Assembly (NCBI GenBank): GCA_910587745.1
Contig: CAJUNE010000001.1
Span: 15,439 to 79,438 of the forward strand
Direction of reading: 5' to 3'
DNA: 64,000 bases
From: an uncultured Bacilli bacterium
GTDB taxonomy: Bacteria > Bacillota_I > Bacilli_A > RF39 > UBA660
Position 1 is the first letter of the stretch; every line of letters starts with the position of its first letter. Shown here one piece after another: positions 43,100-59,489 of the stretch. A program made the translations under genes and the position numbers. A model generated the notes under the pieces. It was not told where the DNA came from and did no database searches. It worked only from the letters and a program-made list of their open reading frames with translations.

Positions 43100-43127
43100 T
43101 TTTAAGAAGATATTTGGTAAATGAACT

Positions 43128-43859: not shown

Positions 43860-43878
43860 AATGGAATATAAAAAAGAA

Positions 43879-44062
43879 AAAGCGTCTAATATTTAAGAAG
43901 CTTTTTTTCTAAGTAAGTAATAACTTTATATAAAATAAAAGAAATAAGTAATAAAATAACAATACCAGATATAACCATATTAAGATTAAATACTTGAGTA
44001 CCATATATAATGAGATAACCAAGATCAGCTTTACTAACTAAAAATTCTCCCATAATAACACC
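43879..44062. repeat. 184-bp direct repeat copy A: duplicate of the 3' end plus terminator of the ABC permease gene
   Basis: Identical to 45240-45423 except 2 mismatches (aagcGtc/aagcCtc, aagaTcag/aagaCcag). Confidence 0.85.
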
Positions 44063-44180
44063 GACTAATTCTGAATGGAGAGAATAATCTAACTATTAAA
44101 AGCATTTATTAATAGCCATTAATTTGGTATAATATAGTTACTATTTTTATTTGAAATTAAAAAGAAAGGAGATGTTTATT

Positions 44181-45191
44181 TTGAATAATTTAGAAGTTAT
44201 CAGTAGTACAGAAGAATTTTTAGTTTTTAAGACACAAGAAAAAGAAAAAGGAATTGCAGTTCGATATGAAAATGAAAATTTATGGATGACACAAAAAGCT
44301 ATGGCTGAGTTATTTGCTGTTAATGTTCCAGCGATTAATAAGCACTTAAATAATATCTATGATGAAGGAGAACTTAATAGAGATTCAACTATTTCCAAAA
44401 TGGAAACAGTTCAACAAGAAGGGAATCGTAATGTAAAAAGAAATGTTGAATTTTACAATTTAGATGCAATTATTTCTGTAGGATATAGAGTTAATTCAAG
44501 GCGTGCTACACAATTTAGAAGATGGGCTACACAAGTTTTAAAAAAATATACTATAGAAGGCTATGCACTAGATAAAAAAAGAATGGAAAACGGAGCATTC
44601 TTAGATAAAGATTATTTTGAAAAACTTTTAGAAGAGATTCGAGAAATTCGCTTGAGTGAGAGAAGATTCTATCAAAAAATCACTGATATATATGCAACCA
44701 GCATCGATTATGATGCAGCATCTCCAACAACTATTGAATTTTTTAAAAAAGTTCAAAACAAAATGCACTATGCCATCACTCATCAAACAGCTGCAGAAAT
44801 TATCTATAATAGAGTAGACCATACAAAAGAAAATATGAATTTAACTTCTTGGAAGAATTCTCCAAATGGAAAAATCATGGAATCTGATGTAGTGATTGCT
44901 AAAAATTATTTAACTAAAGAAGAGATTAAAGATTTAGAAAGAATAGTAAATGCCTTTTTAGAACTTGCTGAGCGTAGAGCTGAGAGGCATATTCCTATGA
45001 CTATGGAAGACTGGAGTACAAGAATAGATAAATATTTACTAGCAGATGATTTAGATGTTTTAAAAGATGCCGGAAAGATATCACATGAAATAGCAGTTGA
45101 TAAAGCTTTAAGTGAATTTGAAAAATATAGAATTACACAAGATAAATTGTTTGAATCTGATTTTGATAAATTTATATTAGAAACAAAATAG
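44181..45191 (+). CDS. rhuM: RhuM family virulence/island-associated protein
   Basis: ENENLWMTQKAMAELFAVNVPAINKHLNNIYDEGEL...FYNLDAIISVGYRVNSRRATQFRRWATQVLKKY matches the conserved RhuM core. Probable TTG start 44181 lies 9 nt after GGAG; the listed start 44151 is in frame upstream. Confidence 0.8.
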   Translation: MNNLEVISSTEEFLVFKTQEKEKGIAVRYENENLWMTQKAMAELFAVNVPAINKHLNNIYDEGELNRDSTISKMETVQQEGNRNVKRNVEFYNLDAIISVGYRVNSRRATQFRRWATQVLKKYTIEGYALDKKRMENGAFLDKDYFEKLLEEIREIRLSERRFYQKITDIYATSIDYDAASPTTIEFFKKVQNKMHYAITHQTAAEIIYNRVDHTKENMNLTSWKNSPNGKIMESDVVIAKNYLTKEEIKDLERIVNAFLELAERRAERHIPMTMEDWSTRIDKYLLADDLDVLKDAGKISHEIAVDKALSEFEKYRITQDKLFESDFDKFILETK

Positions 45192-45239
45192 TAATCCATA
45201 TACATAGAAATTATATAAAGATATTCTCAAAAATGTAAA

Positions 45240-45423
45240 AAAGCCTCTAATATTTAAGAAGCTTTTTTTCTAAGTAAGTAATAACTTTATATAAAATAAA
45301 AGAAATAAGTAATAAAATAACAATACCAGATATAACCATATTAAGATTAAATACTTGAGTACCATATATAATGAGATAACCAAGACCAGCTTTACTAACT
45401 AAAAATTCTCCCATAATAACACC
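45240..45423. repeat. 184-bp direct repeat copy B (native 3' end of the permease gene plus terminator)
   Basis: See copy A. Includes the stop codon of the 45247-46059 gene and the stem aaaaagc...gcttttt. Confidence 0.85.
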
Positions 45424-46059
45424 TATTAGAGTCATAGAAATATTAAGTTTTAAACTAGAAATAATAGTTTTATAAGTTGCAGGAATTGTAAGTTTAAATA
45501 GAGTATCAAGTTTAGAAGCTTTAAAAGTTTTAAAAAGTTTTATTAAATCCGAATCTATATTATTAAAACCATTATAAATAGAAATAATACCTACAATCAA
45601 ATTAATAAGAAGAGCCATAACAATAATAGATTTTGTATTAGCACCTACAATAATAATTATTAAAGGACCAAGAGCTACTTTAGGTAAACTATTAATTAAA
45701 GTAAGGTAGGGATCAATTACTTTATTTAAGATTCTAAATTCATAAAGTAGAATAGCAATAATAAAACTAAGAGTAATTCCGATGGTAAAAGCAATTAAAG
45801 TTTCATAAATAGTGGTAAAAATATGATGAATTAGATTATAATTCAGAAATAGATTTTTAATCGTAACAAGTACTTTAGAAGGAGAAGAAAAGATAAAGGG
45901 ATTAATAATTTTTAAATTGCTAAGAACTTCCCAAGCAATAAGAAAAGCTACTAGAATAAAGACTTGTAAGAATAAAACCAAGATTTTTTCTAATTTAATT
46001 TTTTTCAAATAAGTTTTATGTTCTTTACTCATATTGTAAGTCCTTCCAAATAAGATCAT
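45247..46059 (-). CDS. ABC transporter permease (NitT/TauT family, SsuC-like)
   Basis: 6-TM BPD-type permease with EAA-like loop; translationally coupled to the upstream ATPase. Confidence 0.8.
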   Translation of the reverse strand: MILFGRTYNMSKEHKTYLKKIKLEKILVLFLQVFILVAFLIAWEVLSNLKIINPFIFSSPSKVLVTIKNLFLNYNLIHHIFTTIYETLIAFTIGITLSFIIAILLYEFRILNKVIDPYLTLINSLPKVALGPLIIIIVGANTKSIIVMALLINLIVGIISIYNGFNNIDSDLIKLFKTFKASKLDTLFKLTIPATYKTIISSLKLNISMTLIGVIMGEFLVSKAGLGYLIIYGTQVFNLNMVISGIVILLLISFILYKVITYLEKKLLKY

Positions 46060-46774
46060 AATACTTACTAAAATTTTTATCTTTTCTATTTTCGATTGGA
46101 GTTAAATCTATTTCTCTTTTAATTGGATAAATATTTTTGATATGCGAAGGTCTAGAAGATAAGACAATAACTCTAGTACTAATACTTATAGCTTCTGCCA
46201 AATCATGAGTTACCATAATAGCAGTTTTGCCTTCATTTTTAAGAATTTTATAAACATCATCACTAACACTAAGACGAGATTGATAATCAAGTTTACTAAA
46301 AGGTTCATCAAGAATTAAGATATCGGGTTTTAAAGCCAGAGTACGAATTAAGGCAACTCGTTGTCTCATACCACCAGATAGTTCATCAGGATATTTATCT
46401 TTAAAATCTCCAAGACCATAAGTATCAAGTAAATTATTTACATAATCCATATTATCTTTAGTTTTAGTATGAGTTATTTCAAGAGCGATACAAGCATTAT
46501 CAAATACAGTTCGCCATGAAAGAAGTGAATCACTTTGAAGCATATATCCAAGTTTTAGATTACTTTTAAGAAATTTAATATCACCAGTAGTTTTAGTATC
46601 CATATTAGTAAGGATATTAAGTAGGGTAGATTTACCACAACCACTAGGTCCTACGATTGAAATAAATTCTCCTTGAAATAAATCAAAGGTTATATCACTT
46701 ATAGCATTTACTTCCTTTTTACCTGAATAATAAACTTTAGAAATATTTTTAACACTAAGAAGTTTATTTTTCAT
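46025..46774 (-). CDS. ABC transporter ATP-binding protein (SsuB/TauB-like)
   Basis: Walker A GPSGCGKST, signature LSGGMRQRVAL, Walker B ILILDEPFSKLD. Confidence 0.85.
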   Translation of the reverse strand: MKNKLLSVKNISKVYYSGKKEVNAISDITFDLFQGEFISIVGPSGCGKSTLLNILTNMDTKTTGDIKFLKSNLKLGYMLQSDSLLSWRTVFDNACIALEITHTKTKDNMDYVNNLLDTYGLGDFKDKYPDELSGGMRQRVALIRTLALKPDILILDEPFSKLDYQSRLSVSDDVYKILKNEGKTAIMVTHDLAEAISISTRVIVLSSRPSHIKNIYPIKREIDLTPIENRKDKNFSKYYDLIWKDLQYE

Positions 46775-47312
46775 ATAAATTATTAATTAGTTTACTATAA
46801 GGCATACGTTTATCAATTAACTTATTATCTTCTAAAATATCTTGTAAGTTATTAAAACTTTGTTCATTAATAAAAGGATCACTAAGCCAAGAATCATATT
46901 TCTTATAATTATCAACGATTACAGTTAAATCTTCCAAACTAATATCTGGAAACTCTGGTAATATAACTTTAGCAATAGTTTTAGCATCATTATTTTTAAC
47001 AAATTCTAGTCCTTTATTTATAGCATTAGTAAAATCTTTTAAAGTTTCATTATTTTTATTTAAGTAACTTTTACGAGCATAAAAAGCAGTATAAGGCATT
47101 TCACCAGATAATTTACCAATTGATTCAACAATACAAGCCTTACTATTTTTTACAACACTAGTAGCAGTAGGTTCAAATAAATCAACGAAGTCTCCCATAC
47201 CACCAATAAATGAACCTGATAAAGAAGCAAAATCAACAGCATAATTAACGTTTATTTTACTTAAATCAATATTACTATTCTTAATAGCATTTAAGAAGTT
47301 TAACGCTGGCAT
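46764..47312 (-). pseudogene. C-terminal half of an NMT1/SsuA-like substrate-binding-protein gene, severed by element insertion
   Basis: SBP C-lobe-like sequence. Joins in frame with the 61245-61718 fragment once the intervening element is removed in silico (...VGRQGG|MPALNF...). Confidence 0.7.
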
Positions 47313-47683
47313 TCCTCCTGTTCTTGTACAAAACTTATAACCAATTTAATTCCCCATAAAATAAGGGGTTAATAAAATCATTAGACAAGAAATAGTCTTC
47401 TTTTTTTAATGATTTTATCTCCGTGGGTAAAAACACTCGTATTATATTAGTAGAAGATAAGGAGTGTTGATTTTATGACTATATTTAAGTTGAATTTCAA
47501 TGAAATTATTCCACCGTGATATCTATATTATTATTTATTAAGAATATATAATAGGAGAAAAATATATCCCCTTTTATATATTAAGTTAAGTCATAGTAGT
47601 TATAGATTAAAAGGAGAAGAATTTGAAAGATTTAACTATTTATGTTAATAACGATTTAATTATAGCCAATAAAGGTTATAATT

Positions 47684-48676
47684 ATGAAGACTGAAGTTAA
47701 AAAATTAAGAGATTATGATATCGATTTAGAAGATGAAGTAACATTAATAACTTATAATTGTCATCATCACGAGATACTATATGTTAAGAATAAGAATAGT
47801 AAACCTAGAATTAAGTTATTACCTAATCATATGTATCAGGATCTTACTACTGGAGAAATAAAACCTTGTAAGAAACAAATTAGTAATAGGTCTGAGGGAA
47901 AGATTTCATTAAGGAAAACCTTTAAAAGTATAAGAGAAGCCATTAATGTTAATTGTGAAGATGTTAGAAAATGTAAAATGGTGACATTAACTTATGATGA
48001 AGTTATGAGAGATACAAAGAAATTTGATAGTGATATCAATAAATTTGTTAAGAAGTTTAATTATAGGTATGGAAAGTCAGAGAATATAAAGGTATGTGAG
48101 GCTCAATCAAGTGGTTCTCTACACGCTCATATTATCTTTATATGGGAAGATATCGCTCCATATATTGATTATAAAGATTTAATAAAAGTATGGGGTAAGG
48201 GTTATGTAAAAGTAACTCCTCTATATGGAAATGTCGATGATTTAGGAGCATATTTTACTGCTTGTCTAAGTGATTTACCTATTGAAGAATGTAATATGAC
48301 GTATGAAGAAGTAAGAGAAAAGAACTTGTTAATAAAAGAAGTATATGTAGATGTTAAAACTGGAGAACAATTAAAATGTCCTAAGTATTTTATAAAAGGT
48401 GGTAGATTACAATTTTATCCCCCTAACTTTAGAATATTTAGACCTTCAAGAGGTTTAAAGAAACCACTTAAGGAAAAAATGGAGAATAAAGAAGCATTGG
48501 AAAAGGTTGATTCGAATGAACCAACCTACGAGTCTTATCTCCAAGTATTAGATGAAAACGGTAATGAATTGAATGTAATTGTTCGAAAATGTTATAATTC
48601 GATGAGATTTCCAAGAGAAGATGATAAAGAACCAGAACTAGTTTTCAATATACTAGATGATTTATCTTCTTCATAA
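47684..48676 (+). CDS. HUH-type replication initiator-like protein (rolling-circle Rep-like)
   Basis: MVTLTY (motif I-like) and SGSLHAHIIF (HUH motif II); a candidate Tyr region GAYFTAC. Confidence 0.45.
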   Translation: MKTEVKKLRDYDIDLEDEVTLITYNCHHHEILYVKNKNSKPRIKLLPNHMYQDLTTGEIKPCKKQISNRSEGKISLRKTFKSIREAINVNCEDVRKCKMVTLTYDEVMRDTKKFDSDINKFVKKFNYRYGKSENIKVCEAQSSGSLHAHIIFIWEDIAPYIDYKDLIKVWGKGYVKVTPLYGNVDDLGAYFTACLSDLPIEECNMTYEEVREKNLLIKEVYVDVKTGEQLKCPKYFIKGGRLQFYPPNFRIFRPSRGLKKPLKEKMENKEALEKVDSNEPTYESYLQVLDENGNELNVIVRKCYNSMRFPREDDKEPELVFNILDDLSSS

Positions 48677-48951
48677 TAATATATACGAACCGTAGATATT
48701 AAGAGTGTAATAGTAAAATATTATGCTCTTTTATTTATGATTAAATTGTATCATCGTGAATTACTATGTTTATTTAAGTTTTAACACGATATAAATATCA
48801 AACTAGTGTAATTGATGTAGAAAGTATCAAATTCGTTAATTTGATGTGTTTAACGAAGTATTTTAAAAATTTATGATTTTCATATCTAACAAAAAAGATA
48901 TTTGGTTGTTTTGTGTCAAATATTTATATAGTATAATGTTTTTATTTAGGA

Positions 48952-49524
48952 GTGGTAGAAATGGAAATATATTTAATTGAGAAAGATTTTAATAAGTTTA
49001 AGTATTTACAACTATACTTTAAAGATGAGAATGTTATATTAGTAAATGAAAGTTTTGAGAAGTTTATAAAAAATACAAGGGTTCAATGTGTAGTTTCCCC
49101 GGCTAATTCATTTGGTTTAATGGATGGTGGATATGATTTAGCATTGACTAAGTGGTATGGTAAAGAGTTACAAGAAAGAGTTCAAAAATATATAATTGAA
49201 AATTATTATGGAGAACAGCCAGTCGGTTCTAGTTTCATTATAGAAACTAGAAAAGATAATCAGTATTTAATTCATACACCAACTATGAGAACACCTGAAA
49301 AGATAGTAGATACAAGAGTTATATATCAGTGTATGAGAACTACATTAATGGTAGCAAAAGAAAATGATATAAAAAGTGTTTTGATACCTATGTTTGGTGG
49401 TCTAACTGGTTGTGTAAGACCTCAAGTAGTCGCAGAAATGATGTGTCTAGGATATCGCCAAATAATGGGAAATCATAAAGAAATAAGTTGGGATATAATA
49501 GAAGAATTGAAATTAAAAGAATAG
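48952..49524 (+). CDS. macro domain protein (ADP-ribose binding/processing)
   Basis: VQCVVSPANSFGLMDGGYDLAL matches the macro-domain N-x6-GGGV-like Gly-rich ADP-ribose pocket; 190 aa. Confidence 0.65.
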   Translation: MVEMEIYLIEKDFNKFKYLQLYFKDENVILVNESFEKFIKNTRVQCVVSPANSFGLMDGGYDLALTKWYGKELQERVQKYIIENYYGEQPVGSSFIIETRKDNQYLIHTPTMRTPEKIVDTRVIYQCMRTTLMVAKENDIKSVLIPMFGGLTGCVRPQVVAEMMCLGYRQIMGNHKEISWDIIEELKLKE

Positions 49525-49559
49525 TATCGTTTAACGAAGTGTTTTAAATTGTTATTATT

Positions 49560-49593
49560 CTTACACATTTGAAAAATGTGTAAGAACGTTTTT
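49560..49593 (+). terminator. palindrome/terminator after the macro gene
   Basis: cttacacattt-gaaa-aatgtgtaag is a perfect 11-bp stem followed by aacgttttt. A half-site repeat caaatgtgtaag occurs again just downstream, so this may double as an operator. Confidence 0.45.
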
Positions 49594-49661
49594 CAAATGT
49601 GTAAGTGATAATTAAAAGATTTTTATATATTAATATGAAAGATGTATTACTAGGGAGTCAA

Positions 49662-50099
49662 ATGGAAGATAAAATTAGAAAGTTAGAACAAGAAAGAGAT
49701 TATATACTATCTACTACGGAAGATAAAAGATTAAGTAAGAATAGCACTACTCATTCTAGAATTAAATGTTTTTATAATAGAAGAATTAGTATGTTAAAGA
49801 AATACGGTGTTGAATATGCTCTACAATTAAAACAAGTAAGAGATAAGATAAACGAAACTAATCAAAAGAAGTATGGGTCTAATTCAATTCTAGGTAATAA
49901 GGAATTCCGTGAGAAATATGATATTAATACCAACTTTCAAAAACTAGAAGTAAGAAGAAAGACAAAACAGACTAGTATTATGAGGTATCGAGTATCACAT
50001 CCTCAAAAGAGTCCTATTATTAAAATGAAGATAAGGAAAACTAATTTACTACGATATGGGACACCTAATGGTAAAGGTAAAAGGAAATGTTATGAATAA
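49662..50099 (+). CDS. basic hypothetical protein with three KYG-containing modules
   Basis: Repeated ...KKYG... modules, Lys/Arg-rich (nucleic-acid-binding-like). ATG 49662 lies after RBS AGGGAG; the listed start 49605 is in frame upstream. Confidence 0.3.
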   Translation: MEDKIRKLEQERDYILSTTEDKRLSKNSTTHSRIKCFYNRRISMLKKYGVEYALQLKQVRDKINETNQKKYGSNSILGNKEFREKYDINTNFQKLEVRRKTKQTSIMRYRVSHPQKSPIIKMKIRKTNLLRYGTPNGKGKRKCYE

Positions 50100-50490
50100 T
50101 AAGTTATTTGAGATGTTAGACAAATTAGATAGTTTTGTTACAACTGAAGAAATTGGTATAGATTTTATAGAAGTTTATAATAGTAAAAATGAACTACAAA
50201 TTGATATATTTTCAGTTCCAAACAATTCATTTAAGTTATTTTCAGTTCCTGATATTGTTGTTGGTTATTTATATTTTGATAAAGATAAAAATTGTGTTTG
50301 GAGTTATCGTGATGAAGAATTTGGAAATGATAATAGAAAGAATAAGATTAACAAAATATCCGTACAATATGAAAATGGAGATTTCATAGATGTACGAGTT
50401 AATTGGAATTCGTTATTTTATGAGTTAGATAGTGGAAATAGTATCCTATTATTTATGGGAGAAAAAATTATAGATGATAAAAGGAATTGA
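50092..50490 (+). CDS. hypothetical protein
   Basis: ORF with RBS AAAGGAAA before ATG 50092, overlapping the upstream stop. No recognisable motif. Confidence 0.3.
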   Translation: MNNKLFEMLDKLDSFVTTEEIGIDFIEVYNSKNELQIDIFSVPNNSFKLFSVPDIVVGYLYFDKDKNCVWSYRDEEFGNDNRKNKINKISVQYENGDFIDVRVNWNSLFYELDSGNSILLFMGEKIIDDKRN

Positions 50491-51014
50491 TTATGTTATT
50501 GTATAACGGAAGTAAGTTTGTAAAAGGAAATGTGTTTGAGGATCCTAGAGGTAATAAATTCACATTTTATAAAAATACTAAAAATGGTAAGTTATTTACA
50601 ATGGAAAATGGTGTTAGAGTTGGTTTAACAGAGGGTCAAGTAAATAAATTGAAATTATTAAATGAAGATACTATTACAAAGAAAATTGAAGCACCTAAAA
50701 TAATTGGAATAGATATTAAATTTGATTTTTGTGAAGAAAAATTTCGTATATTAGAGAATTCCTTAAAGAGTTTTAATGTCTATATAGATAGTGATAATCA
50801 AAATCACTTTATTGGATATGTTTGTTTTGATATGAAGAATGTTACATTAGGTAGTTTTACTTTAGAATTCCTAAAAGAGTATCAAAAAAGTGGTTTAGTT
50901 GATGTAATGTTTGAAGATATGACTGGAGAACAATATAAAACAGTATGGATTTATGGAATTCAAAATATACAAGATGATATTTATCTATTCTTGTTTGAAA
51001 GTAAAAAAGAATAG
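50487..51014 (+). CDS. hypothetical protein
   Basis: ORF translationally coupled to the upstream gene; no recognisable motif. Confidence 0.3.
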   Translation: MIMLLYNGSKFVKGNVFEDPRGNKFTFYKNTKNGKLFTMENGVRVGLTEGQVNKLKLLNEDTITKKIEAPKIIGIDIKFDFCEEKFRILENSLKSFNVYIDSDNQNHFIGYVCFDMKNVTLGSFTLEFLKEYQKSGLVDVMFEDMTGEQYKTVWIYGIQNIQDDIYLFLFESKKE

Positions 51015-51075
51015 TCTTTGTATGTTGTTATTCTCTTGTTTCTAGTAGATAATTACACTAGGTGGTGTTTTATAT

Positions 51076-51372
51076 ATGAGAAAAGATTTAAGAAAAAAAT
51101 ATGATGATTATTATAAAGAATATGACTTGTATATAAGAGATATAATGGTTAAAACATATGCTAGACAACTTTCTAAATACTATGATTATGGGTTATTGAT
51201 TAATCGAGATACTAGTTTAAATCAATATGTGAATTCAATAGGAGATTTATTTAATGTAACCTATTTATTTTCTGAATTGAGAAACGAGGTAGAACAACTA
51301 TTAAGAGAGAAATATCATTTAGTTATCGTAAATGATGAACCTTTACAAATTGAAACAATTAAAAATGACTAG
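51076..51372 (+). CDS. hypothetical small protein
   Basis: ORF with RBS TAGGTGG; no recognisable motif. Confidence 0.3.
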   Translation: MRKDLRKKYDDYYKEYDLYIRDIMVKTYARQLSKYYDYGLLINRDTSLNQYVNSIGDLFNVTYLFSELRNEVEQLLREKYHLVIVNDEPLQIETIKND

Positions 51373-51390
51373 TTCATGAACTGAATTTAG

Positions 51391-51684
51391 TCATTTTTGT
51401 TTTTTGATTAAATCATCAAGTTTAACTCCTAGAGCAACTGATATTTTATAAAATGTGTCAACACTAAAATTATATGCTGTTTTTTCACTCTCTATTTGTC
51501 TTATAAAGTCGTGTGATAAGTCTACCATTTCCGATAATTCCATAGCAGTAATACCTTTTAATTTTCTATATTTCTTAATGTTTTTACGAATTGTATTATA
51601 GATGTCGGTATCAAATTTTAACGTTTCTTTCCTCTTCATAATAACTTCATATCTCCTAAATATAATTGTAGAGTAATACCTCAC
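51391..51684 (-). CDS. XRE-family helix-turn-helix transcriptional regulator
   Basis: LKGITAMELSEMVDLSHDFIRQIESEK is a Cro/CI-type HTH; divergently oriented to the downstream operon. Confidence 0.75.
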   Translation of the reverse strand: MRYYSTIIFRRYEVIMKRKETLKFDTDIYNTIRKNIKKYRKLKGITAMELSEMVDLSHDFIRQIESEKTAYNFSVDTFYKISVALGVKLDDLIKKQK

Positions 51685-51716
51685 AAAAATATGTTAGGTA
51701 ACTTCTAACATTATTG

Positions 51717-51746
51717 TTGACAAATATTGTAGAAATATGATATTAT
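51717..51746 (+). promoter_or_regulatory. promoter in the divergent control region of the element
   Basis: TTGACA, 18-nt spacer, TATTAT(AAT). Followed by a nested hairpin (ttccgacaaaa...ttttt-cggaa enclosing ctgttgg...caacag) and a terminator-like ggaacact...agtgttcc+T6 before ATG 51907. Confidence 0.4.
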
Positions 51747-51906
51747 AATGATGTCGGTAAGAAGTACTTAATTCCGACAAAACGTAGTACTGTTGGTTTG
51801 AAGTAATAGAAGTCAACAGATGAAGTTTTTCGGAACACTAAGTAGTTTTTAAAGTGTTCCTTTTTTGTTGTTTAAGGAATACTATGTAGAAAGAGAGAGT
51901 GTTTAT

Positions 51907-52869
51907 ATGAGTAAGAAAGAAACAAATTCAACCGAAAAAAAGAAAGGAAAATTAAAGAAAATTCTATTGATTATTTTATTAATAATTGTAGTTCCTATTA
52001 TTGTGTTCTTTGGTTATAGGTTCATTAGTACTAAAATTAGTAAATCTAATTCAGAAAAATTTAATAATAATTTGAATGAACTCGCTAAGGAACGAATTGA
52101 TTATGTATTTATCGAGATTAACCCATCACTTGTATTAACTGTTAAAGATAATAAAGTAGAAGATATAAGTTGTTTAAATGATGACTGTATGACTATGTAT
52201 AATGAATTAAATGTCAAAGGAAAAAATATTAATGATAGTATTGATACTATTTATAATAAGTCTAAAGAAAAAGGTTTTGATGTTTCAAATGGAGTTAAGA
52301 TTAAAACTTCTAATAATGTAAATATTGAAGTTAAGGACCATATTATTATCGAACATATAGATAGTATTAAAGAACAAGAATTGTTAAAAGAAGTAAAGAA
52401 CAATGAAGATATTAAAAATGTAAGTAATGATAATTATTACACTAATTTATGGGAAGAATTAAAGAAAGACAAAGATTATGATAATTTTTATACTTGTAAA
52501 ATGGTGGATAAAGAACTTAAATGTTATTTCGCAGAGAAGTTTTTAACTATGTCAAACGAAAATAACGGTAATGGTTTAAATCCTAGGGATTTATCAAGAG
52601 TTTTAGATAAGTTTGGAATTAAGTACGAAAGTTGGAACTGGGGAGTAGATTTTGGAGATCATCCATATGGTTTATATATAAATGGTAAACTTTATTATAT
52701 GGTTAACGATAGTTTAGAATATTACGGAGATATACCTGATTGTGAGAGTGAAAAATCTGGTATGCCAACAGGTTATGTTTCTTGTGCTATGGCATATGGA
52801 AACCCTGAAAATATAATACAATATCCAAAAAGTAAATTAAATCTATTAACTTCACAATTTGATAGTTAG
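51907..52869 (+). CDS. hypothetical N-terminally membrane-anchored protein
   Basis: Lys-rich N-terminus, then TM helix ILLIILLIIVVPIIVFFGY and a hydrophilic ~280-aa domain. ATG 51907 follows RBS AGAGAGAG. Confidence 0.35.
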   Translation: MSKKETNSTEKKKGKLKKILLIILLIIVVPIIVFFGYRFISTKISKSNSEKFNNNLNELAKERIDYVFIEINPSLVLTVKDNKVEDISCLNDDCMTMYNELNVKGKNINDSIDTIYNKSKEKGFDVSNGVKIKTSNNVNIEVKDHIIIEHIDSIKEQELLKEVKNNEDIKNVSNDNYYTNLWEELKKDKDYDNFYTCKMVDKELKCYFAEKFLTMSNENNGNGLNPRDLSRVLDKFGIKYESWNWGVDFGDHPYGLYINGKLYYMVNDSLEYYGDIPDCESEKSGMPTGYVSCAMAYGNPENIIQYPKSKLNLLTSQFDS

Positions 52870-52871
52870 GA

Positions 52872-54260
52872 GTGGTCTATGTGGCATTAATTAAATGTAG
52901 TGAGTGTGGAAAAGAAATGAGTGACCATGCTAAAATATGTCCTAATTGTGGTTGTATTATTGATTCTATCAAAAATACCAATAATGCTAGTAAAAAAAGA
53001 AACTCTTTTTTAAAAAACAAAAAAGTATGGATAGTTTTAAGTGTAATAATAATAATTATGGGAATAGTTATTATTAGTTTTTTTAACCTATCTGATAGTA
53101 ATATCATAAGGGAATTGAATATTGAAGAAGGTTGCTATGCGAGAGAAGATGATAAAGAGAATCTGATTTGTTTTACTAAGGGTGTGAAATTTCATAATGT
53201 TTTATATAAATATGACACTTACTGGAATGATAAATATGCAAATATACCACCAAAGGATGATCCATCATATGGTACAACAGAGTTTTCGTTTAATTATGAT
53301 AAAAAAACTATTACTACTAATGTTAAAAGTAAAGGCCCCACTGGCACGGCTAGGCTGGAAAGAAAATGTTCAGTTGTTAATTCAACAACAATTGAGTGTT
53401 ATGAAAATCAATATGAAAATCATGGAGATGGAGAAAAAATTGTTGAAGATTTAGCAGTAAAACGTATATATATTAAAGTTAATAAGGATTTTAATGAAGA
53501 AATTATTAATGAATTTCCTATATTTGAACGGATAAAACCCTTTAAAATTAATTTTGATGGTGAAGAAATAACTTGTAATTTAACTTGGAAATATTCTCAA
53601 ATAAGGATTTCTGGACCAGTGGCCATAAAAGACTGTTTAGAGAATAAATATAATACCAACTATACTGTTAGTAATGTCAGTGAAGATGATAATAGATGGT
53701 TAATATTTTCATCAGAACAAAGCGAAGCTGCTGAAAAGATATTTCCTAAAGTATATGGAACTATGGGTTTAACAACTAATCCCGATGCTATAAAATATAT
53801 TAAAGCAAATTATAGTTATTATGTCAAAGTAGATGATAGAGAATTTCGTGCTTTTGAGGATTTTCCAATTGATCCATATAATCAAGATGAGTTAATGACA
53901 GTTAGTATTACTACAACAAAAGAAGATAAAAATAAGGAATATGGATTGTATGAATTACAAAAAAAGTATATAGACACTACTATAAATTACTGGGGAAGTT
54001 CATATGAGTTTACAGGTTCAAAAAATGGTGTTTTTGCTACATTAATTAATGGTAAACTAGCTGAAATACAAAATAATCCAGTAGGTTTTACTTATGAACA
54101 TTTTGGAAATACTATAAGTATAGATGGTGGAGATGTTATTTGTAAGCTATATAGTGATTCAAGAATGGAGTGTAAAGCAAAAAATTCCTCTTCTATTAGT
54201 TATTATGTTGCTAAAAATGATCCTTTGTATAGTAAAGAAAATTATAGACATGCAGATTAG
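52872..54260 (+). CDS. hypothetical protein: N-terminal double-CxxC zinc ribbon, single TM, large C-terminal domain
   Basis: CSECGKEMSDHAKICPNCGC, then VWIVLSVIIIIMGIVIISFF, then a ~380-aa domain; coupled to the upstream gene by a 2-nt gap. Confidence 0.35.
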   Translation: MVYVALIKCSECGKEMSDHAKICPNCGCIIDSIKNTNNASKKRNSFLKNKKVWIVLSVIIIIMGIVIISFFNLSDSNIIRELNIEEGCYAREDDKENLICFTKGVKFHNVLYKYDTYWNDKYANIPPKDDPSYGTTEFSFNYDKKTITTNVKSKGPTGTARLERKCSVVNSTTIECYENQYENHGDGEKIVEDLAVKRIYIKVNKDFNEEIINEFPIFERIKPFKINFDGEEITCNLTWKYSQIRISGPVAIKDCLENKYNTNYTVSNVSEDDNRWLIFSSEQSEAAEKIFPKVYGTMGLTTNPDAIKYIKANYSYYVKVDDREFRAFEDFPIDPYNQDELMTVSITTTKEDKNKEYGLYELQKKYIDTTINYWGSSYEFTGSKNGVFATLINGKLAEIQNNPVGFTYEHFGNTISIDGGDVICKLYSDSRMECKAKNSSSISYYVAKNDPLYSKENYRHAD

Positions 54261-54315
54261 ATTCATTTCAAAGTGAGTATGATATCAATTAATTGTAGGT
54301 ACGAGAAAAGACAGT

Positions 54316-55509
54316 TTAGTTGCTGTCTTCTTTTTTGTTTCTATAATAGTATTCGTTAGATTTTTTATTCTTCCTATATCTTTGACATTCTTTAGTTTTG
54401 CAGTATTCTTGTCTTCCATTTTGCTGAAAGTATCTTTTACAATTAGGGTTAGCACACTTTATCATTTTAACTCCCCCATACTCGTAGTTAGTTGTTAAAT
54501 TAAGCAATAATTTATAGTATGAGACTCCTATTAAAGAATAACCCATAATAAAGTTTTTGTATATACGAATATCTTTGTCAAATACTATTTGTTCGTAATC
54601 AATATTAAAACTTTGATAATAAGTATCACTTATTCCAAACGGATAATAGAATTCTTGACCTTTTACATAATGTTTTAGTTTGTAGGTATATAGTAATGAT
54701 AAACCATTTATAACTCCTATCACATCTTCAAAATTAGACATATCTATTCTAGTATTTAATAAGGATATATCAAGTAAATAGTTATCTTCATTTTCTTTCA
54801 TTTCGGTTATTACAGGCATTAGAAATTCAAGGTTAATCTTGTATTTATCTTTTTCTTCAAATATTAAGTCCATTTCTTTTAACCACTCTTTAAAGGTAGA
54901 TATAGCACTTGTTGTGTGAATCGTTTTAAGAATAAGAACTCCGTAAATTAAATACCAATAAATATATTCGTTTAGTTCATCAAGTAAATCATTAATTACA
55001 TTGTCATATTTGTTTTCGTAGTCAGGATTTCTAGAACTTAAAGACTCTATTTCGTGTATGATTTCGTGTGTTCTAGAAAGTATATAGAGATTTACTACAT
55101 CTTTACTGAATAAACCTATATTCAAATCAAGTTTATTAGTTCTATTCTTACCGTAATATTCAAAACCTCTAAAATATGGATAACCATTTTTTTGAACCCA
55201 ATAGTCAATACCAAACTTTATTCCCTCTATGTGTTCCAATTCACTTACTTTATAAAATAGATATTCTATATCAAAATGTTCATCATTTTTCATATATTCG
55301 TAAAGTTCTTCTCCAAGGGAGTAAATACTTTCGTAGATATCTTCTATCTTAGTAGCAACTATTTTTTCTTTTATAAAGGGAATTTCATTATAGGAGTAAT
55401 CACTATCGTTATTATTAGTATTATGATGGAAGTATTCATATAACAAGATATAACAGTTATCATATACCTCATCTATCTCAATGTGTTTAAAATCTAACAT
55501 AAAGACCAC
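54316..55509 (-). CDS. hypothetical protein with HExxH(E) motif and C-terminal Cys4 zinc-finger-like tail
   Basis: SRTHEIIHEIESL (HExxH plus Glu) at about residue 150. C-terminal CANPNCKRYF...YCKTKECQRYRKNKK (C-x4-C-x13-C-x4-C). Possible ImmA/IrrE-like metallopeptidase, unverified. Confidence 0.3.
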   Translation of the reverse strand: MVFMLDFKHIEIDEVYDNCYILLYEYFHHNTNNNDSDYSYNEIPFIKEKIVATKIEDIYESIYSLGEELYEYMKNDEHFDIEYLFYKVSELEHIEGIKFGIDYWVQKNGYPYFRGFEYYGKNRTNKLDLNIGLFSKDVVNLYILSRTHEIIHEIESLSSRNPDYENKYDNVINDLLDELNEYIYWYLIYGVLILKTIHTTSAISTFKEWLKEMDLIFEEKDKYKINLEFLMPVITEMKENEDNYLLDISLLNTRIDMSNFEDVIGVINGLSLLYTYKLKHYVKGQEFYYPFGISDTYYQSFNIDYEQIVFDKDIRIYKNFIMGYSLIGVSYYKLLLNLTTNYEYGGVKMIKCANPNCKRYFQQNGRQEYCKTKECQRYRKNKKSNEYYYRNKKEDSN

Positions 55510-55600
55510 CTCTTTATTAATCTTACCATATTCTTACCGATTAAGAAATGTCTTTTGGTAAGATTTTTTAATAAGATATTAATGGAAAGGAGAAAAAGAA

Positions 55601-56050
55601 ATGAATGAGTATGTTGATACTAGTTTTGGTAGTATCGATGAAGAAACTAAAACTTCTGAATTAAATTACATTCAAAAGGCTTTTCTAACTTGTGATATAG
55701 AGTTAGAAGATGGTGTTCTTTATGATGGTGAACTATTAGAAGTTAAAGATGGGGAAACTGGACCTGATACGCCAATTGTAAGTTATGTTTATGGGGTAAA
55801 TGGTATTGAAGTTAAAGATACTTACTTCTTAAGTCAAAATGCCATTAAATTAAACATTTCAAGACTAAAGGAAACTTTACAAAAGTTTGGTTACTCTTTA
55901 GGAATTGAAGATTTGGTTGATGGAGCGAAGTCTATAGCAAAATCTACTAAATGTTTAGTGGGTACTAAAGTTACACTTAAACAAACAAGTAGAATAACCA
56001 AAGATAGAACTTTCAAGAATATTGAAGTTGTATCTGTAATCGGAAAATAA
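55601..56050 (+). CDS. hypothetical protein
   Basis: ORF with RBS GGAGAAAAAG; no motif recognised. Confidence 0.3.
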   Translation: MNEYVDTSFGSIDEETKTSELNYIQKAFLTCDIELEDGVLYDGELLEVKDGETGPDTPIVSYVYGVNGIEVKDTYFLSQNAIKLNISRLKETLQKFGYSLGIEDLVDGAKSIAKSTKCLVGTKVTLKQTSRITKDRTFKNIEVVSVIGK

Positions 56051-56157
56051 TTAATAAAAATTAGGTAGTTGGGGTTGATGATTTCATATATCTACCCCTA
56101 ACCTAATTATATGATTATTTTGTTTGTTACATTTAGAAAAATGAAAGGAGATTAAAA

Positions 56158-56523
56158 ATGTATAAACAATTTATTGAATTATCTCTTTATGTATATGGAG
56201 AAAAAGGTATGAAGAGGTATGACTTTCTCGATAATGAGGTTTGTCAATTTAAAATGGATAAAATTACTTCTTGTGTGGAGTGTTTAGATAATTGGGTAAG
56301 AAAAACCTATCAATGTGAAAGTTTTTCTATAAAGTTATTGAAAAAGGGAGAAATAATTAGAGAGTGTGATTTGGAAGAGTTTTTGAAAACCTTACCTCTA
56401 GTGGGGACAATTGTATTTGTGTATGATGATGGTACTGAAGAACATTATAGTTTTCCTCGTGAATTAGATATTCAATATGACATACAAGATGATTATGTAT
56501 CTTTAAAGTTAGGAAATGTGTAG
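56158..56523 (+). CDS. hypothetical protein
   Basis: ORF with RBS AAAGGAGA; Cys pairs (CVECLDNW...CESF). Confidence 0.3.
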   Translation: MYKQFIELSLYVYGEKGMKRYDFLDNEVCQFKMDKITSCVECLDNWVRKTYQCESFSIKLLKKGEIIRECDLEEFLKTLPLVGTIVFVYDDGTEEHYSFPRELDIQYDIQDDYVSLKLGNV

Positions 56524-56552
56524 AAATGAGTAAGGAAAGGAAAGGAAAATAT

Positions 56553-57869
56553 ATGAATAAGATGTCAATAGTTTTTAGTGAAGAACAACAAACTACTTTA
56601 AAAATAATGGAAACAAGTAATCAAAATATGGGTATAACAGGAAAACCTGGAACTGGTAAGTCAGAAGTTTTAAAACAATTTGTGATAAACACTAAAAAGA
56701 AAGTCGTTGTACTTGCTCCTACTGGAGTGGCTGCTTTAAATGTAGGGGGTCAAACAATACATTCTTTCTTTAGACTGGATCCAAAGATTAATTTTGTTGA
56801 GGAATTACAACTTGATAAAATGAGACCATATTTAAAGGATTTATTAAAAAAGATTGATACCATCATCATCGATGAAATATCAATGGTTTCACCAAACTTA
56901 TTAGATATTATAGATACCATGTGTAAGTATGCCACTGGTGTTTCAAGTTCTTTTGGTGGAATACAATTAATATGTTTCGGAGATTTATATCAGTTGTTAC
57001 CAATTGTAACAGATGATTATGTAAAATCTAGATTAAAAAAGGAATACGGTGAAGTGCTGTTTTATAAAGCACACGCTTTTGAAAATAACAACTTCATCGA
57101 TGACAATAGTTTAAAAGTTTATGAGTTAAATAAGGTTTTTAGACAAAGTGATGAAAATTTTAAGAGTATTCTAAATGAGATAAGACTTGGAACTGTTTCT
57201 CAAGAAACTCTTGATATTCTTAATAAACGAGTAATTACTGGAGATGTAAAAGAAGATATTATTACTTTAGCAACAAATAATGAAATTGTTAATAGTATTA
57301 ACAAATCTAAACTTGATGAATTACGAAGTAAAGAATTTATTTATAAGGCTAAAGTTGAGGGAAATATATCAAGTAAACAATACCCTAATGATGAGGAACT
57401 TCATTTAAAAGTTGGTTCCCAAATAATGATGCTTATTAATGACAAACTTGGAAGATGGGTTAATGGAACTATTGGTGTTGTTTCAAGTCTTAAACCTAAC
57501 GAAATTAAAGTTAGAATTAATGATGAAGAGTACACCATAGAAAAATATACTTGGGAAAATAGTAAGTATGTATTAAATAATGGAGAATTCTCACAAGAGA
57601 TTATTGGAAAGTTTGAACAATATCCATTAAAACTTGCTTGGGCTATAACTATTCATAAAGGACAAGGTCAAACTTATAAATCGGTATTAATCGATTTAGG
57701 TACTGGTGCTTTTGCTACTGGGCAAACCTATGTAGCATTAAGTAGATGTACTACCCTTGAAACTTTGTATTTAAGAAGACCGATAAAGTTTTCGGATATA
57801 ACAGTTAATCAAGAAGTAGTTGACTTTATGAAAAAAGTTGAAATAGTAAAATTAGGAGGAGAAAAGTAA
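56553..57869 (+). CDS. Pif1/RecD-like superfamily-1 DNA helicase
   Basis: Walker A GKPGTGKS, VLAPTGVAALNVGGQTIHSFF, DEISMVS (motif II), C-terminal ITIHKGQGQTY (motif V-like). ATG 56553 follows AAGGAAAGGAAA. Confidence 0.7.
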   Translation: MNKMSIVFSEEQQTTLKIMETSNQNMGITGKPGTGKSEVLKQFVINTKKKVVVLAPTGVAALNVGGQTIHSFFRLDPKINFVEELQLDKMRPYLKDLLKKIDTIIIDEISMVSPNLLDIIDTMCKYATGVSSSFGGIQLICFGDLYQLLPIVTDDYVKSRLKKEYGEVLFYKAHAFENNNFIDDNSLKVYELNKVFRQSDENFKSILNEIRLGTVSQETLDILNKRVITGDVKEDIITLATNNEIVNSINKSKLDELRSKEFIYKAKVEGNISSKQYPNDEELHLKVGSQIMMLINDKLGRWVNGTIGVVSSLKPNEIKVRINDEEYTIEKYTWENSKYVLNNGEFSQEIIGKFEQYPLKLAWAITIHKGQGQTYKSVLIDLGTGAFATGQTYVALSRCTTLETLYLRRPIKFSDITVNQEVVDFMKKVEIVKLGGEK

Positions 57870-57870
57870 A

Positions 57871-58497
57871 ATGGATAAAAATAATCAGAACACAGAAACA
57901 CTGGATATGGTAAACAGAAAATCATATCCAGCAGTTTTATTAGATGTCGTAACGGAGCATGACCCTATTAGAAAAGTGTATGTCGTGAAATTTATTTATA
58001 AAGTTTATTTTAGTGCTACACAAACTAAGGAAGTTGTTGATAATTTCTATTTGTGGGACCGTTCTAAGTATAGAAGAGTTGCTTTGGAAAGATTACATAA
58101 GGTATTAGATGTCTATAATCTTAAACTTCTTTATAAAGATTATAGAAATGAAACATCAATTGCTAATGCTTGTAAGTGGCTAGTTGATACTAAGGTGGAA
58201 ATACAACAATATAGTTACAAGGGAAACAGGTATAAAGTATTGTCTTCTGAAAGAAATGATTCTAGAAGAATAGACTGTTTATGGGAATGTATGTTGAAAA
58301 ATGATTTAGATAGTTTTCCAGAATGTTTAAAAAGCACTGATGAACTTACTGATGAACTTACTGATGAACTTCTTAATGAATTTGTATCAGCCTGTTTAAA
58401 AAGTGAGGAGTCTAACAAAAATTTAAATGAAGATTTTTGTATTACTCCTGAAATGTATTACGAACTAGAATTTAACACGAAAAAGAAACGCCGTTGA
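57871..58497 (+). CDS. hypothetical protein with 3x TDEL tandem repeat
   Basis: 12-bp unit actgatgaactt x3 at about 58340-58375; otherwise no motif. Confidence 0.3.
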   Translation: MDKNNQNTETLDMVNRKSYPAVLLDVVTEHDPIRKVYVVKFIYKVYFSATQTKEVVDNFYLWDRSKYRRVALERLHKVLDVYNLKLLYKDYRNETSIANACKWLVDTKVEIQQYSYKGNRYKVLSSERNDSRRIDCLWECMLKNDLDSFPECLKSTDELTDELTDELLNEFVSACLKSEESNKNLNEDFCITPEMYYELEFNTKKKRR

Positions 58498-58639
58498 AAA
58501 ATCATAGATTTACAAAGACTAAGAAATGCTATGTTTTTAGTCTTTGTAATATACCCTAATTAAATTTTTAAAGGGTTGTAAATAACGGTGGACTTTTACA
58601 AAGGAATATTGGATAGTATCTTCGAAAGGAGATGGACCA

Positions 58640-59236
58640 ATGAATAGAACCTATGGATATTGTAGGGTGTCGTCAAAAAATCAAAATTTAGAAAAACAAT
58701 TGTTCGTAATGAAAGAAGCAGGGGTTGATGAAAGGTTTTTATTTACGGAAAAAGAGAGTGGAAAATCTTTTTCTGACCGACCTCAATATCAAATTTTAAA
58801 AAATGCTTTAAGAAGTGGCGATACATTATATGTAACTTCACTTGATAGGTTTGGTAGAAATTATTCCCAAATCGTTGAAGAGTATTCATATATGGTAAAC
58901 AATGGTATAAATATTGTAATTCTTGATATGCCAATGCTAAGTGCCAAGCAAGATGATGATCTAATGCAAAGGTTTACACAAAATTTAGTACTTCAAATTT
59001 TAAGTTTTGTTGCTGAAACTGAACGTTTACACATTAAAGAACGTCAAAAAGATGGAATAATGGTAGCGAAGTCAAAAGGCGTAAAGTTTGGAAGAAAACG
59101 AATTGAGAAACCTAGTAACTGGAATGAAATCATTTCTAAATGGAAAAATGGAGAGATGACTGGAGTAAGAGCATACACGGAGTTAGGACTTAAAGAAACA
59201 ACATTTTATAAACTACTTCGTGAAGAAAAGGCTTAA
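58640..59236 (+). CDS. small serine recombinase (resolvase/invertase family) with C-terminal HTH
   Basis: YGYCRVSSKNQNLEKQ catalytic-Ser motif, ~200 aa, C-terminal HTH. Confidence 0.8.
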   Translation: MNRTYGYCRVSSKNQNLEKQLFVMKEAGVDERFLFTEKESGKSFSDRPQYQILKNALRSGDTLYVTSLDRFGRNYSQIVEEYSYMVNNGINIVILDMPMLSAKQDDDLMQRFTQNLVLQILSFVAETERLHIKERQKDGIMVAKSKGVKFGRKRIEKPSNWNEIISKWKNGEMTGVRAYTELGLKETTFYKLLREEKA

Positions 59237-59489
59237 AAAGTGAATAATAATTGTGGTAAAAATATTAATTAAATTCATTAAAATATCCTAATTGTTTTCT
59301 AAAAATACTTATAACTTCGTATTATTTAACGAGGTGTAAGAAATGAAAATAGTAAATATTTTTAATGAAGATGGAAAGACTCTACAAGAAATTATAGAAT
59401 TTCATTTAATCGAGTATTGTTTAAATGCTAAAAATAATTAAATATTTATAGTTGTACTTGTAGTTTAAAATTGAGAGGAGTGATTTTAT

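Follow-up and report, generated by a model that had tools for sequence, protein, structure and literature searches.

A rhuM cassette flanked by copies of a host permease gene end is a probable relic of serine-recombinase integration

In the 64,000-nucleotide stretch of DNA analysed here (the window), from contig CAJUNE010000001.1 of an uncultured Bacilli bacterium, a single rhuM gene lies between two nearly identical copies of the 3' end of an ABC permease gene. The 1361-bp unit so formed is probably an integrase-less remnant, or mini-cassette, of the integration of an island with a large serine recombinase (LSR) at an attB site in the permease gene, the crossover falling at the GG of codon 204. 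Serine-recombinase elements are expected to split their target, leaving 2-bp repeats. Here the target appears to have been restored repeatedly by a host-derived duplication of approximately 190-210 bp between the recombinase cut and the terminator, the outcome being that one cargo gene is left behind and the site is reusable.

The direct repeat, as defined by alignment, by reading of the sequence and by BLAST, is 186 bp long (43877-44062 and 45238-45423) with two mismatches and a spacing of 1361 bp; a repeat-finding program called 191 nt (43877-44067 and 45238-45428) at 98% identity and the same spacing. A preliminary description had put the repeat at 184 bp, some 176 bp of it coding, within 43879-45423, which is right to within a few bases. 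A 57-nt core of the repeat occurs exactly twice in the window, with none expected from 100 shuffles. Copy B (45238..45423, minus strand; found, as was copy A, by repeat search, alignment and BLAST) is the 3' end of the intact permease gene (BPD_transp_1, 261 amino acids, 45247..46032, minus strand, assigned by profile search and protein matches) together with a bidirectional terminator (45237-45268). The gene of the ABC ATPase of the same operon is at 46025..46774 (minus strand, profile search). Copy A (43877..44062, minus strand) is an orphan comprising the last 58 permease codons, the stop codon and the terminator, and forms the B' side of an attR. The first mismatch (43884 G versus 45245 C) is inside the terminator and the second (44025 T versus 45386 C) changes glycine to aspartate in the orphan copy, which gene callers report as a 55-residue open reading frame in 21 contigs. 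A UDG gene adjoins copy A in the window. The 1175 bp between the copies contain rhuM as the sole gene, as had been stated. A target-site duplication of the transposon type, short, of fixed length and made by staggered cuts, does not match, the repeats being 186-208 bp with a length that follows the host gene and its terminator. The layout was found in every assembly of the source species long enough to reveal it and in the sister lineage L015, and the orphan-copy SNP is polymorphic between strains (L116), which makes doubtful the suggestion that the event was recent.

Comparison of junctions places the inner limit of repeat identity at the crossover dinucleotide (44061..44062), CC on the plus strand and GG, in codon 204, on the permease strand. 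The adjoining 23 nt (44063..44085, plus strand), GACTAATTCTGAATGGAGAGAAT, are recognisable from homologous arms and from their match to bona fide P/P' arms as an LSR attachment half-site, or P-arm. Since this half-site stands beside the orphan copy, the junction is shown to be an attR, with the P-arm on one side of the GG and the 3' end of the permease on the other. Homologues of the P-arm are present at the equivalent place in L139, L110, L148 and L128. The mini-cassette arms agree with bona fide arms at 13-15 of 23 positions, in fixed position and orientation (p approximately 0.007 to 4e-4); the window's own arm, at 13 of 23, is moderately similar, and bona fide arms agree among themselves at 16-18 of 23. 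The window has no other site like its P-arm: a search of the cassette and of the whole window for a second half-site (P'), older orphans or other P-arms gave none above background. Downstream of the arm lies a promoter block (44103..44133, plus strand), recognised by its conservation between hosts, with an extended -10, TGGTATAAT, at 44125-44133; the module of P-arm plus promoter reads GACTAAYWCTRWATGGAGAGAA...TTGGTATAAT. The block is conserved among hosts whose permeases are only 55-58% identical and is reused 5' of a Bro-N cassette in L128. A metagenome scan for it returned two loci only.

The rhuM gene (44181..45191, plus strand) has a TTG start at 44181, with alternatives at 44172 and 44151, and encodes 336 amino acids matching Pfam PF13310 over the full length (E=2e-109, 365 bits, cutoff 33.7) and PADLOC PDC-S05 (E=6e-151, 500 bits). 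The exact protein is encoded in more than 20 contigs; in exact-protein look-ups of the permease and RhuM, the longest-ORF starts gave nothing and shorter starts gave matches. By these matches rhuM is a candidate defence or toxin gene, an anti-phage or toxin role being prediction only in the literature (PMC3710099). RhuM was also considered as the recombinase and rejected, because it belongs to a predicted toxin/DNA-binding family and has no recombinase domain. In phage and plasmid collections RhuM identity did not exceed 61% and the gene contexts were uninformative. Between rhuM and copy B is a 46-nt tail (45192..45237, plus strand) in which, by comparison with other hosts, the cargo meets the regenerated permease end at a variable distance; in those hosts the join measures 0-116 nt, and the C-terminal tails of RhuM vary by host.

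Complete islands occupy the same site elsewhere. A family of permease-targeting LSRs is found with islands of 9 kb or larger at the codon-204 GG in at least six host backgrounds, some of them with rhuM, in line with the earlier view of rhuM as island cargo. In L033, where the permease is 97% identical, identity ends at the same GG and the adjoining gene encodes an intact LSR of 451 amino acids. LSRs 81-98% identical to it adjoin permeases truncated at 205-208 amino acids (L131-L138 and L149-L156). The attL junctions read ...TTGG-GA(G/C)(C/T)TAAGACA... (the hyphen marking the junction) in six loci with differing permeases (L033, L133 and L149-L152). The whole element of L133, approximately 9 kb with rhuM among its cargo, is bounded by a 57-residue orphan plus P arm at one end and by a P' arm plus the permease 5' part at the other, the two arms forming inverted repeats around the GG. 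One and the same nucleotide marks the orphan junction of the window, L053, L128/L147, L139, L148 and L110 and the attR of L133, and the attP reconstructed is CTCTCTATATGTCTTGCATC-GG-GAGCTAAGACATATGTAGAG. Sequence comparison thus shows related LSRs inserting at exactly this GG in many hosts, normally splitting the permease gene. The insertion footprint previously placed at a site-specific recombination site within the permease 3' part is upheld, its junction being the LSR crossover GG. A conserved LSR attB is hereby defined at codon 204 of the NMT1-type ABC permease gene in many uncultured gut Bacilli, entered by islands with defence-type genes (RhuM, Shedu-like and Gabija-like), and natural attB, attP, attL and attR sequences are provided for this recombinase family.

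The unit in the window is not a complete element of this kind, having no recombinase of its own, no attL with a P' arm and a repeat of 186 bp rather than 2 bp. It carries no integration or transfer genes; none of the rhuM-bearing full islands at the site has its exact right end, and no complete island ending at the right in the P-arm, promoter and rhuM (type-1) module was found, so that the precursor is one that we infer rather than see. IMG/VR, searched with the cassette promoter and the LSR, gave no close relatives, and hence no free attP was recovered. The absence of a cognate integrase from the insert had been noted before and holds: the window's sole LSR (59490-61052) is 25% identical to the permease-targeting family and belongs to a separate 13.9-kb element (47320..61263; profile search and comparison) inside the substrate-binding-protein gene of the permease operon, which also carries Rep (47684-48676) and leaves gene fragments at 46764-47319 and 61264-61718. 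The ends of this element share a 6-nt overlap only, without a long duplication, and it shows locally what a plain LSR insertion looks like, such insertions leaving no long repeat (PMC5704250, PMC3783163). Rfam and tRNA scans of the whole window found nothing, so the target is not of the tRNA type.

The same layout of LSR half-site, conserved promoter, one gene and restored permease end is present in at least five distantly related hosts, most cases having been located by RhuM-based search, with the ascertainment bias that this brings. Between hosts, DNA identity is 83-90% for rhuM, 63-76% for the repeat and 57-69% for the permease 5' part, and the RhuM proteins are 85-95% identical where the permeases are 55-58% identical. 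As the repeats diverge with the host permease while the cargo stays alike, the duplicated end is host-derived and not imported. The comparison shows a cargo module (P-arm, promoter and rhuM) that has moved horizontally between distant hosts, and flanking repeats that are in each case the host's own permease end. The claim that the insert had carried a replacement 3' end is not borne out by these values; the other option offered with it, duplicative capture, fits a host-derived end. Vertical inheritance of one ancient insertion was rejected, the rhuM phylogeny conflicting with those of the permease and the ATPase. In all five hosts the outer end of the repeat lies 5-10 nt beyond the terminator stem. 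Orphan copies decay in place, the one in L139 by a stop codon and the one in L148 by a frameshift of 2 nt. L128 also has a second and older cassette, with Bro-N as its gene, in which the promoter is shared, a remnant of the P-arm survives and the orphan terminator is degraded, and in L015 and L148 a first rhuM is followed by the remnant of a second. In L123 the same rhuM adjoins the permease without the duplication and without the P-arm, so not every occurrence fits a relic.

We propose that an LSR island would first integrate at attB within the permease gene, with crossover at the codon-204 GG. After or during integration, a second event, not catalysed by the LSR and probably involving an illegitimate join, would set a duplicate of the host's own stretch between the GG and the terminator end next to the permease 5' part. 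The recombinase end of the island would thereby be lost, and the permease and attB would be whole again, together with a terminator that serves both the permease and the convergent rhuM. As copy B joins the 5' part of the gene seamlessly, attB is regenerated; it would stay open to further islands, so that arrays can build up. With only one half-site in the cassette, an LSR cannot move it. The rhuM gene would be expressed from its own conserved, predicted promoter as a stand-alone candidate defence or toxin gene, and the 186-bp direct repeats would permit RecA-type loss as a 1361-bp circle and regain by homologous recombination within the species. Against this account, the copy-B step matches no known LSR reaction, and relic formation by rare accident would need at least five independent events, all stopping at one outer limit 5-10 nt beyond the stem of the terminator. 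Such a shared limit in at least five hosts argues for a systematic mechanism.

One such mechanism, which we consider rather unlikely, is an active cassette-insertion process in gut RF39-like Bacilli, in which single-gene modules (half-site, promoter and ORF, with rhuM or Bro-N) enter the LSR site and the broken target is repaired as part of that one event. The host segment would be copied from the cut to the transcript 3' end, from the sister chromosome or from permease mRNA, and then joined to the free end of the cassette. In all five hosts the inner end is fixed where the LSR cuts, the outer end follows the stem by 5-10 nt and the join varies from 0 to 116 nt; the outer end coincides with the place where intrinsic terminators release RNA, the repeat is host-native, and L128 has two successive cassettes with the same 5' module, which also recurs across hosts with permeases only 55-58% identical. 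However, the cassettes come with no reverse transcriptase or other dedicated enzyme, and there is no bacterial precedent. The outer limit may also reflect turnover of the variable island beside copy A (UDG in the window, the rhuM2 remnant in L015), which could have shifted the apparent limit of homology to the final conserved base of the permease unit, and the cases come mostly from RhuM searches, a biased sample. If true, this would add to integrons, CIMEs and transposons a separate insertion mechanism that regenerates its target and builds arrays. A systematic origin would offer a new route for fixing defence genes at a hotspot while sparing the target gene any cost, and possibly template-copying repair coupled to site-specific recombination; an accidental one would make the unit a clear natural example of island-relic formation, with long direct repeats that make relics polymorphic for gain and loss.

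It is unlikely that a small element instead brought its own permease 3' end and terminator and integrated site-specifically or in the Campbell manner, which is in essence the main reading of the preliminary description. The element would then have supplied copy B and displaced the host end that is now copy A, and a donor of the same species, or gene conversion at a later time, would account for how alike the two are. Islands aimed at gene 3' ends classically have such a layout (PMC5704250), and a circle of cargo plus repeat could spread thus within a species. An imported end should, however, travel with its cargo, and copy B is no closer between hosts than the rest of the permease (63-76% versus 57-69%), with the cargo at 83-90%. 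In L110 the orphan copy and promoter differ from copy B by approximately 15%, the changes being largely synonymous or conservative, as though the two copies had come from different functional alleles, and in L053 six of the seven differences between the copies are synonymous; both mosaics are explicable by post-insertion recombination. The best match to the L110 orphan among 80 species-level permeases was 87%, so its source is unsampled. Gene conversion at approximately 70% identity is inefficient, homogenising through the terminator to one end point in five hosts would be unexpected, and the orphans of L139 and L148 decay and are not homogenised. Finally, a circle with P-GG-B' carries an attR-type site, and LSRs do not recombine attR-type sites with attB (PMC3783163).

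Several contigs look like the loss and circular forms that an LSR relic with long repeats would yield. The rhuM-less, single-copy allele sought in the preliminary description is seen in L115, but another assembly of the same run (L122) breaks at the repeat, so L115 could be an assembler shortcut. Four contigs (L099, L100, L102 and L103) pass from the 5' side of rhuM through a repeat to its 3' side, and two of 1391 nt (1361+30) look cyclic (L098 and L113). These are possible products of homologous recombination. The SNP pattern of the empty-site and circle-junction contigs is exactly what a de Bruijn graph would give if it wrongly joined sequences across the identical 137-nt core, and several have 1.5-3x coverage; as both SNPs are linked to the flanks, the pattern is uninformative between a real empty site or circle and an assembler artefact. 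The other differences of L115 fall outside the region covered by a Logan contig of the same run. That the layout itself is an artefact of a collapsed or expanded repeat, or that the repeat boundary meets the LSR site by chance, is extremely improbable: although all the data are metagenome assemblies and many contigs end at the repeat, the identical arrangement, copy-specific SNPs included, recurs in ten independent MAGs or contigs, both copy-specific SNPs with both unique flanks recur in at least eight assemblies from different pipelines, five other hosts show a like architecture with different repeat sequences, and the coincidence is exact to the nucleotide in six attL, two attR and six orphan junctions.

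To our knowledge, rhuM has not been described as tied to one chromosomal target, the NMT1-type ABC permease gene end, and to an LSR half-site. Members of the RhuM family occur in defence islands and type I R-M operons (PMC3710099, PMC9881135), and here too the gene is full-length and solitary in a mobile or defence context. The LSR integrative and mobilizable elements (Tn4451-type, the rumA-targeting streptococcal IMEs, SPbeta/SprA in spsM) resemble the present system in an attB inside a protein-coding gene, a 2-bp crossover, imperfect inverted P/P' arms, a terminally placed recombinase gene and defence-type cargo, and the full islands of L033, L133 and L149 fit their description. Those elements leave a split target flanked by the 2-bp core only, whereas the unit in the window has no recombinase, one half-site, an intact target and a 186-bp flanking duplication that is host-derived. 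CIMEs and tandem accretion in the ICESt1/ICESt3 family of Streptococcus provide the likeness of a decayed, integrase-less remnant at a still-usable site, with arrays as the result, as in the two cassettes of L128 and the rhuM1 and rhuM2 remnant of L015 and L148. A CIME keeps attL and attR and is excisable in trans by the cognate integrase; in the window only attR survives, attL being replaced by a regenerated attB, so that excision would be by homologous recombination between the long repeats only, and the recombinase is of the serine and not the tyrosine type. Islands and prophages that target the 3' ends of tRNA or protein genes with tyrosine integrases likewise have an intact target beside the element, an orphan 3' fragment at the far end and flanking direct repeats of tens to hundreds of bp. 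Their repeat belongs to attP and moves together with the element, whereas the repeat described here diverges along with the host rather than following the cargo, and no tyrosine integrase is involved; a duplicated gene end that is the host's own sequence, and not borne by the cargo, is unusual.

A repeat search of the window returned a direct repeat of 98% identity with a spacing of 1361 (43877-44067 against 45238-45428). By sequence, alignment and BLAST the true identity covers 186 bp (43877-44062 and 45238-45423) with two mismatches, at 43884/45245 and 44025/45386, so that the repeat pair reported in the preliminary description does exist; a 57-nt core is present exactly two times in the window and in none of 100 shuffles. 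The right-hand copy, copy B (45238-45423), is the end of an intact ABC permease gene (BPD_transp_1; 45247-46032, minus strand) and consists of 58 codons, the stop codon and the bidirectional terminator (45237-45268). The left-hand copy, copy A (43877-44062), is an orphan, which appears in gene calls as a 55-aa ORF. The sole gene between the copies is rhuM (44181-45191; PF13310, E=2e-109), which has a conserved promoter of its own and relies on the bidirectional terminator of the permease; as first described, the insert holds no integrase. Since the structure and both copy-specific SNPs recur in numerous MAGs and metagenome contigs of independent origin (L001-L005, L095, L105, L109, L111, L112 and L114), the repeat is not an assembly artefact.

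RhuM proteins 78-100% identical to that of the window are numerous. In every context examined, rhuM is convergent with the end of an orthologous ABC permease gene, in surroundings that are otherwise unrelated (loci L123, L128, L139, L147 and L148 from other assemblies). The repeat around rhuM is 186 nt in the window (99% between copies), 201 nt in L053 (97%), 208 nt in L128 and L147 (95%), 207 nt in L139 (93%) and about 193 nt in L148 (95-96%), and in 5/5 repeat-bearing hosts the orphan starts at the same codon, G-(V/A/I)-I-M-G-E. Between hosts, a module made up of a 23-nt arm next to copy A, the promoter (with TTGGTATAAT) and rhuM is kept and the repeats are not: DNA identity is 83-90% for rhuM (type 1), 63-76% for the coding part of the repeat and 57-69% for the 5′ part of the permease gene, and RhuM proteins are 85-95% identical where the host permeases are 55-58% identical. 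The rhuM cargo has therefore moved horizontally between hosts, while the duplicated segment is each host's own sequence; an insert carrying a replacement 3′ end, as initially proposed, does not fit these values.

The orphan decays in place, with a stop codon in L139, a 2-nt frameshift in L148 and a Gly->Asp change in the window. A second, older cassette in L128 (4655-5688) contains a Bro-N-domain gene with the same promoter as the rhuM cassette, a remnant of the arm and an orphan degraded down to its terminator. The insertion process has thus acted repeatedly at one locus, and the remains in L128 indicate a cassette array. In L053, L123, L033 and L148 this site is taken by a second RhuM lineage with ~50% identity to the first, and stacked remains in L015 and L148 run from rhuM1 through the orphan to a rhuM2 remnant. 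The duplication is not obligatory, as L123 has the same rhuM beside the permease with neither duplication nor arm.

The inner end of the repeat coincides with the crossover site of a large serine recombinase (LSR). Among 80 species-level loci, L033 has a permease 97% identical to that of the window, with the match confined to residues 1-204; its junction reads ...ATGACTCTAATAGG|GAGCTAAGACATATG, breaking at the same GG at which the identity of copies A and B starts, and the gene next to the break encodes an intact 451-aa LSR. Relatives of this LSR, at 81-98% identity, are common in gut assemblies and in every context retrieved adjoin a permease cut short at 205-208 residues (L131-L138 and L149-L156, at least five host backgrounds beyond L033). 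Six of six attL junctions read ...TTGG|GA(G/C)(C/T)TAAGACA(T/C)ATGT(A/C)GAGAA despite differing permease sequences. The whole element of ~9 kb, seen in L133 and L135, comprises in order an orphan 57-aa permease end, the P arm CC|GATGCAAGACATATAGAGAGAAC, cargo including a Shedu-like SduA_C protein and RhuM, the LSR, the P′ arm and the permease 5′ part. P and P′ form inverted repeats around the GG, the layout expected of the attP of an LSR. The sites of these enzymes are two short stretches of about 40-50 bp, with exchange at a central dinucleotide (PMC12286644, PMC3783163). These full islands are otherwise ordinary site-specific LSR elements for which the permease is a newly described target.

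In the window, the 23 nt adjoining copy A (44063-44085, GACTAATTCTGAATGGAGAGAAT) and their homologues in other hosts match the island arms at 13-15/23 positions, placed and oriented as predicted; a random 23-mer from the window would match this well with a probability of 0.007 to 4e-4. On this evidence the inner junction of copy A is an attR of the permease-targeting LSR family. Neither a P′ arm nor a recombinase was found in the cassette, and there is no further half-site of this kind elsewhere in the whole window. The early interpretation is thus partly upheld: the locus is the footprint of a site-specific insertion, with rhuM as island cargo. RhuM itself matches the PADLOC candidate defence family PDC-S05 (E=6e-151), has been predicted to be a toxin domain that takes the position of Fic/DOC in R-M and defence loci (PMC3710099) and is enriched beside phase-variable type I R-M genes (PMC9881135); it is a predicted, candidate defence or toxin protein.

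The source of the window is an uncultured RF39-like Bacilli member of roughly 25% G+C (record label 'uncultured Tenericutes/Bacilli bacterium'). In relatives, secE-nusG is convergent with the SBP-ATPase-permease operon, and the gap between nusG and the permease is a hotspot, being ~30 nt in some and filled by 2-7 kb of variable genes in others. In the window it holds DUF4325, a 255-aa protein, a UDG-like gene, copy A and rhuM. The three genes left of copy A (41829-43859; the last of the UDG superfamily) are mobile cargo themselves. Close homologues of these genes adjoin rhuM where the host permeases are only ~58% identical (L123 4177-4827). In L033 a UDG gene (18980-19771) lies between the LSR junction and the locus end, ~8 kb from the junction, and in L015 a second-type rhuM remnant stands in place of the UDG gene. 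Further left, a surface-protein gene (34414-39264, 1616 aa, NPCBM/F5_F8-type-C) contains internal repeats of ~145 nt, 90% identical and offset by 54 nt (38478-38676).

The same operon has been hit a second time in the window's strain, where the SBP gene is interrupted by a 13.9-kb element (47320-61263) that leaves fragments at 46764-47319 and 61264-61718, so that the transporter is probably inactive. The element encodes an LSR (59490-61052), a Rep protein of Rep_ORF2/G2P type (47684-48676) and a Macro-domain protein. The overlap at its junctions is no more than 6 nt, and the conspecific MAGs L001, L003 and L004 lack it. The ATPase gene is a third LSR target in this three-gene operon. In several other species it is broken at about codon 138 with an LSR gene in the gap (L093, at 4836-9993, and also L057, L075, L082, L049, L060, L061 and L094). 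In L015 (2472-8248), from a sister lineage with a 99% identical permease, rhuM is interrupted at codon about 222-228 by a ~5.8 kb element with a fragmented LSR and a MobV-like relaxase. In L131 (1-2310) a second LSR gene (389 aa) and a TraG-like coupling protein directly adjoin the attR end of the permease-targeting island, suggesting tandem accretion of two LSR elements. Downstream of the attL-marking LSR of L033 (12303-16081), an OLD-family ATPase-like ORF (526 aa) and a UvrD-like helicase ORF (370 aa) form, by eye, a putative Gabija-like pair.

Recombination in and around the cassette is real, as L110 is a mosaic in which the orphan copy and promoter are ~15% diverged and the rhuM ORF, copy B and permease differ hardly at all from those of the window. 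For a rhuM-less allele with a single repeat, the 52-kb contig L115 shows the layout (UDG, one repeat copy, permease, no rhuM). Four contigs (L099, L100, L102 and L103) run from the promoter side of rhuM through the repeat to the rhuM 3′ end, and L098 and L113 are 1391 nt (1361+30) with matching ends. These are the expected products of recombination between the repeats, namely an empty site and a 1361-bp circle or tandem, but they are equally expected from a de Bruijn-graph assembler walking through the 137-nt identical core, so that such an allele is possible only. Coverage is 1.5-3x for several of the contigs, and a Logan contig of the run that gave L115 ends inside the repeat. Gain and loss polymorphism of the cassette is likely but unproven.

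LSR-type elements split their target gene (PMC5704250), and the window's own 13.9-kb element is in line with this. As LSRs exchange at a 2-bp core, an LSR alone cannot create a duplication of 186-208 bp. Across hosts the inner end of the repeat is fixed at the LSR cut, and the outer end falls shortly after the terminator stem (5 nt in the window, 5 in L128, 8 in L139, 6 in L148 and 10 in L053). Transcript release at an intrinsic terminator falls at that distance past the stem. The join to the cargo is variable, 0 to 116 nt past the rhuM stop codon, and RhuM proteins of different hosts have different C-terminal tails. Three routes are possible. An illegitimate join could have followed island integration and been selected for restoring the permease; the attR segment could have been duplicated in tandem, with normal attL x attR excision afterwards; or a break at the cut could have been repaired with the sister chromosome or the permease mRNA as template, copied as far as the 3′ end of that transcript. 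Among the loci retrieved, no full island with the rhuM cassette as its right end was found. The sequence adjoining copy A differs between close relatives (UDG in the window, a rhuM2 remnant in L015), and turnover there could have moved the point at which homology visibly ends and so produced an apparent limit at the terminator. The recurrence of the architecture, with a duplication that is host-derived and terminator-bounded, suggests a hitherto undescribed mechanism.

The cassette is similar to a CIME or an island relic, yet a CIME is defined by attL plus attR and the cassette, having one att half-site, falls outside that definition. It also resembles islands that target gene 3′ ends; their repeat, however, is element-borne and that of the cassette is not, which sets it apart from these too. 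We therefore file it as an attR-only relic with a regenerated target.
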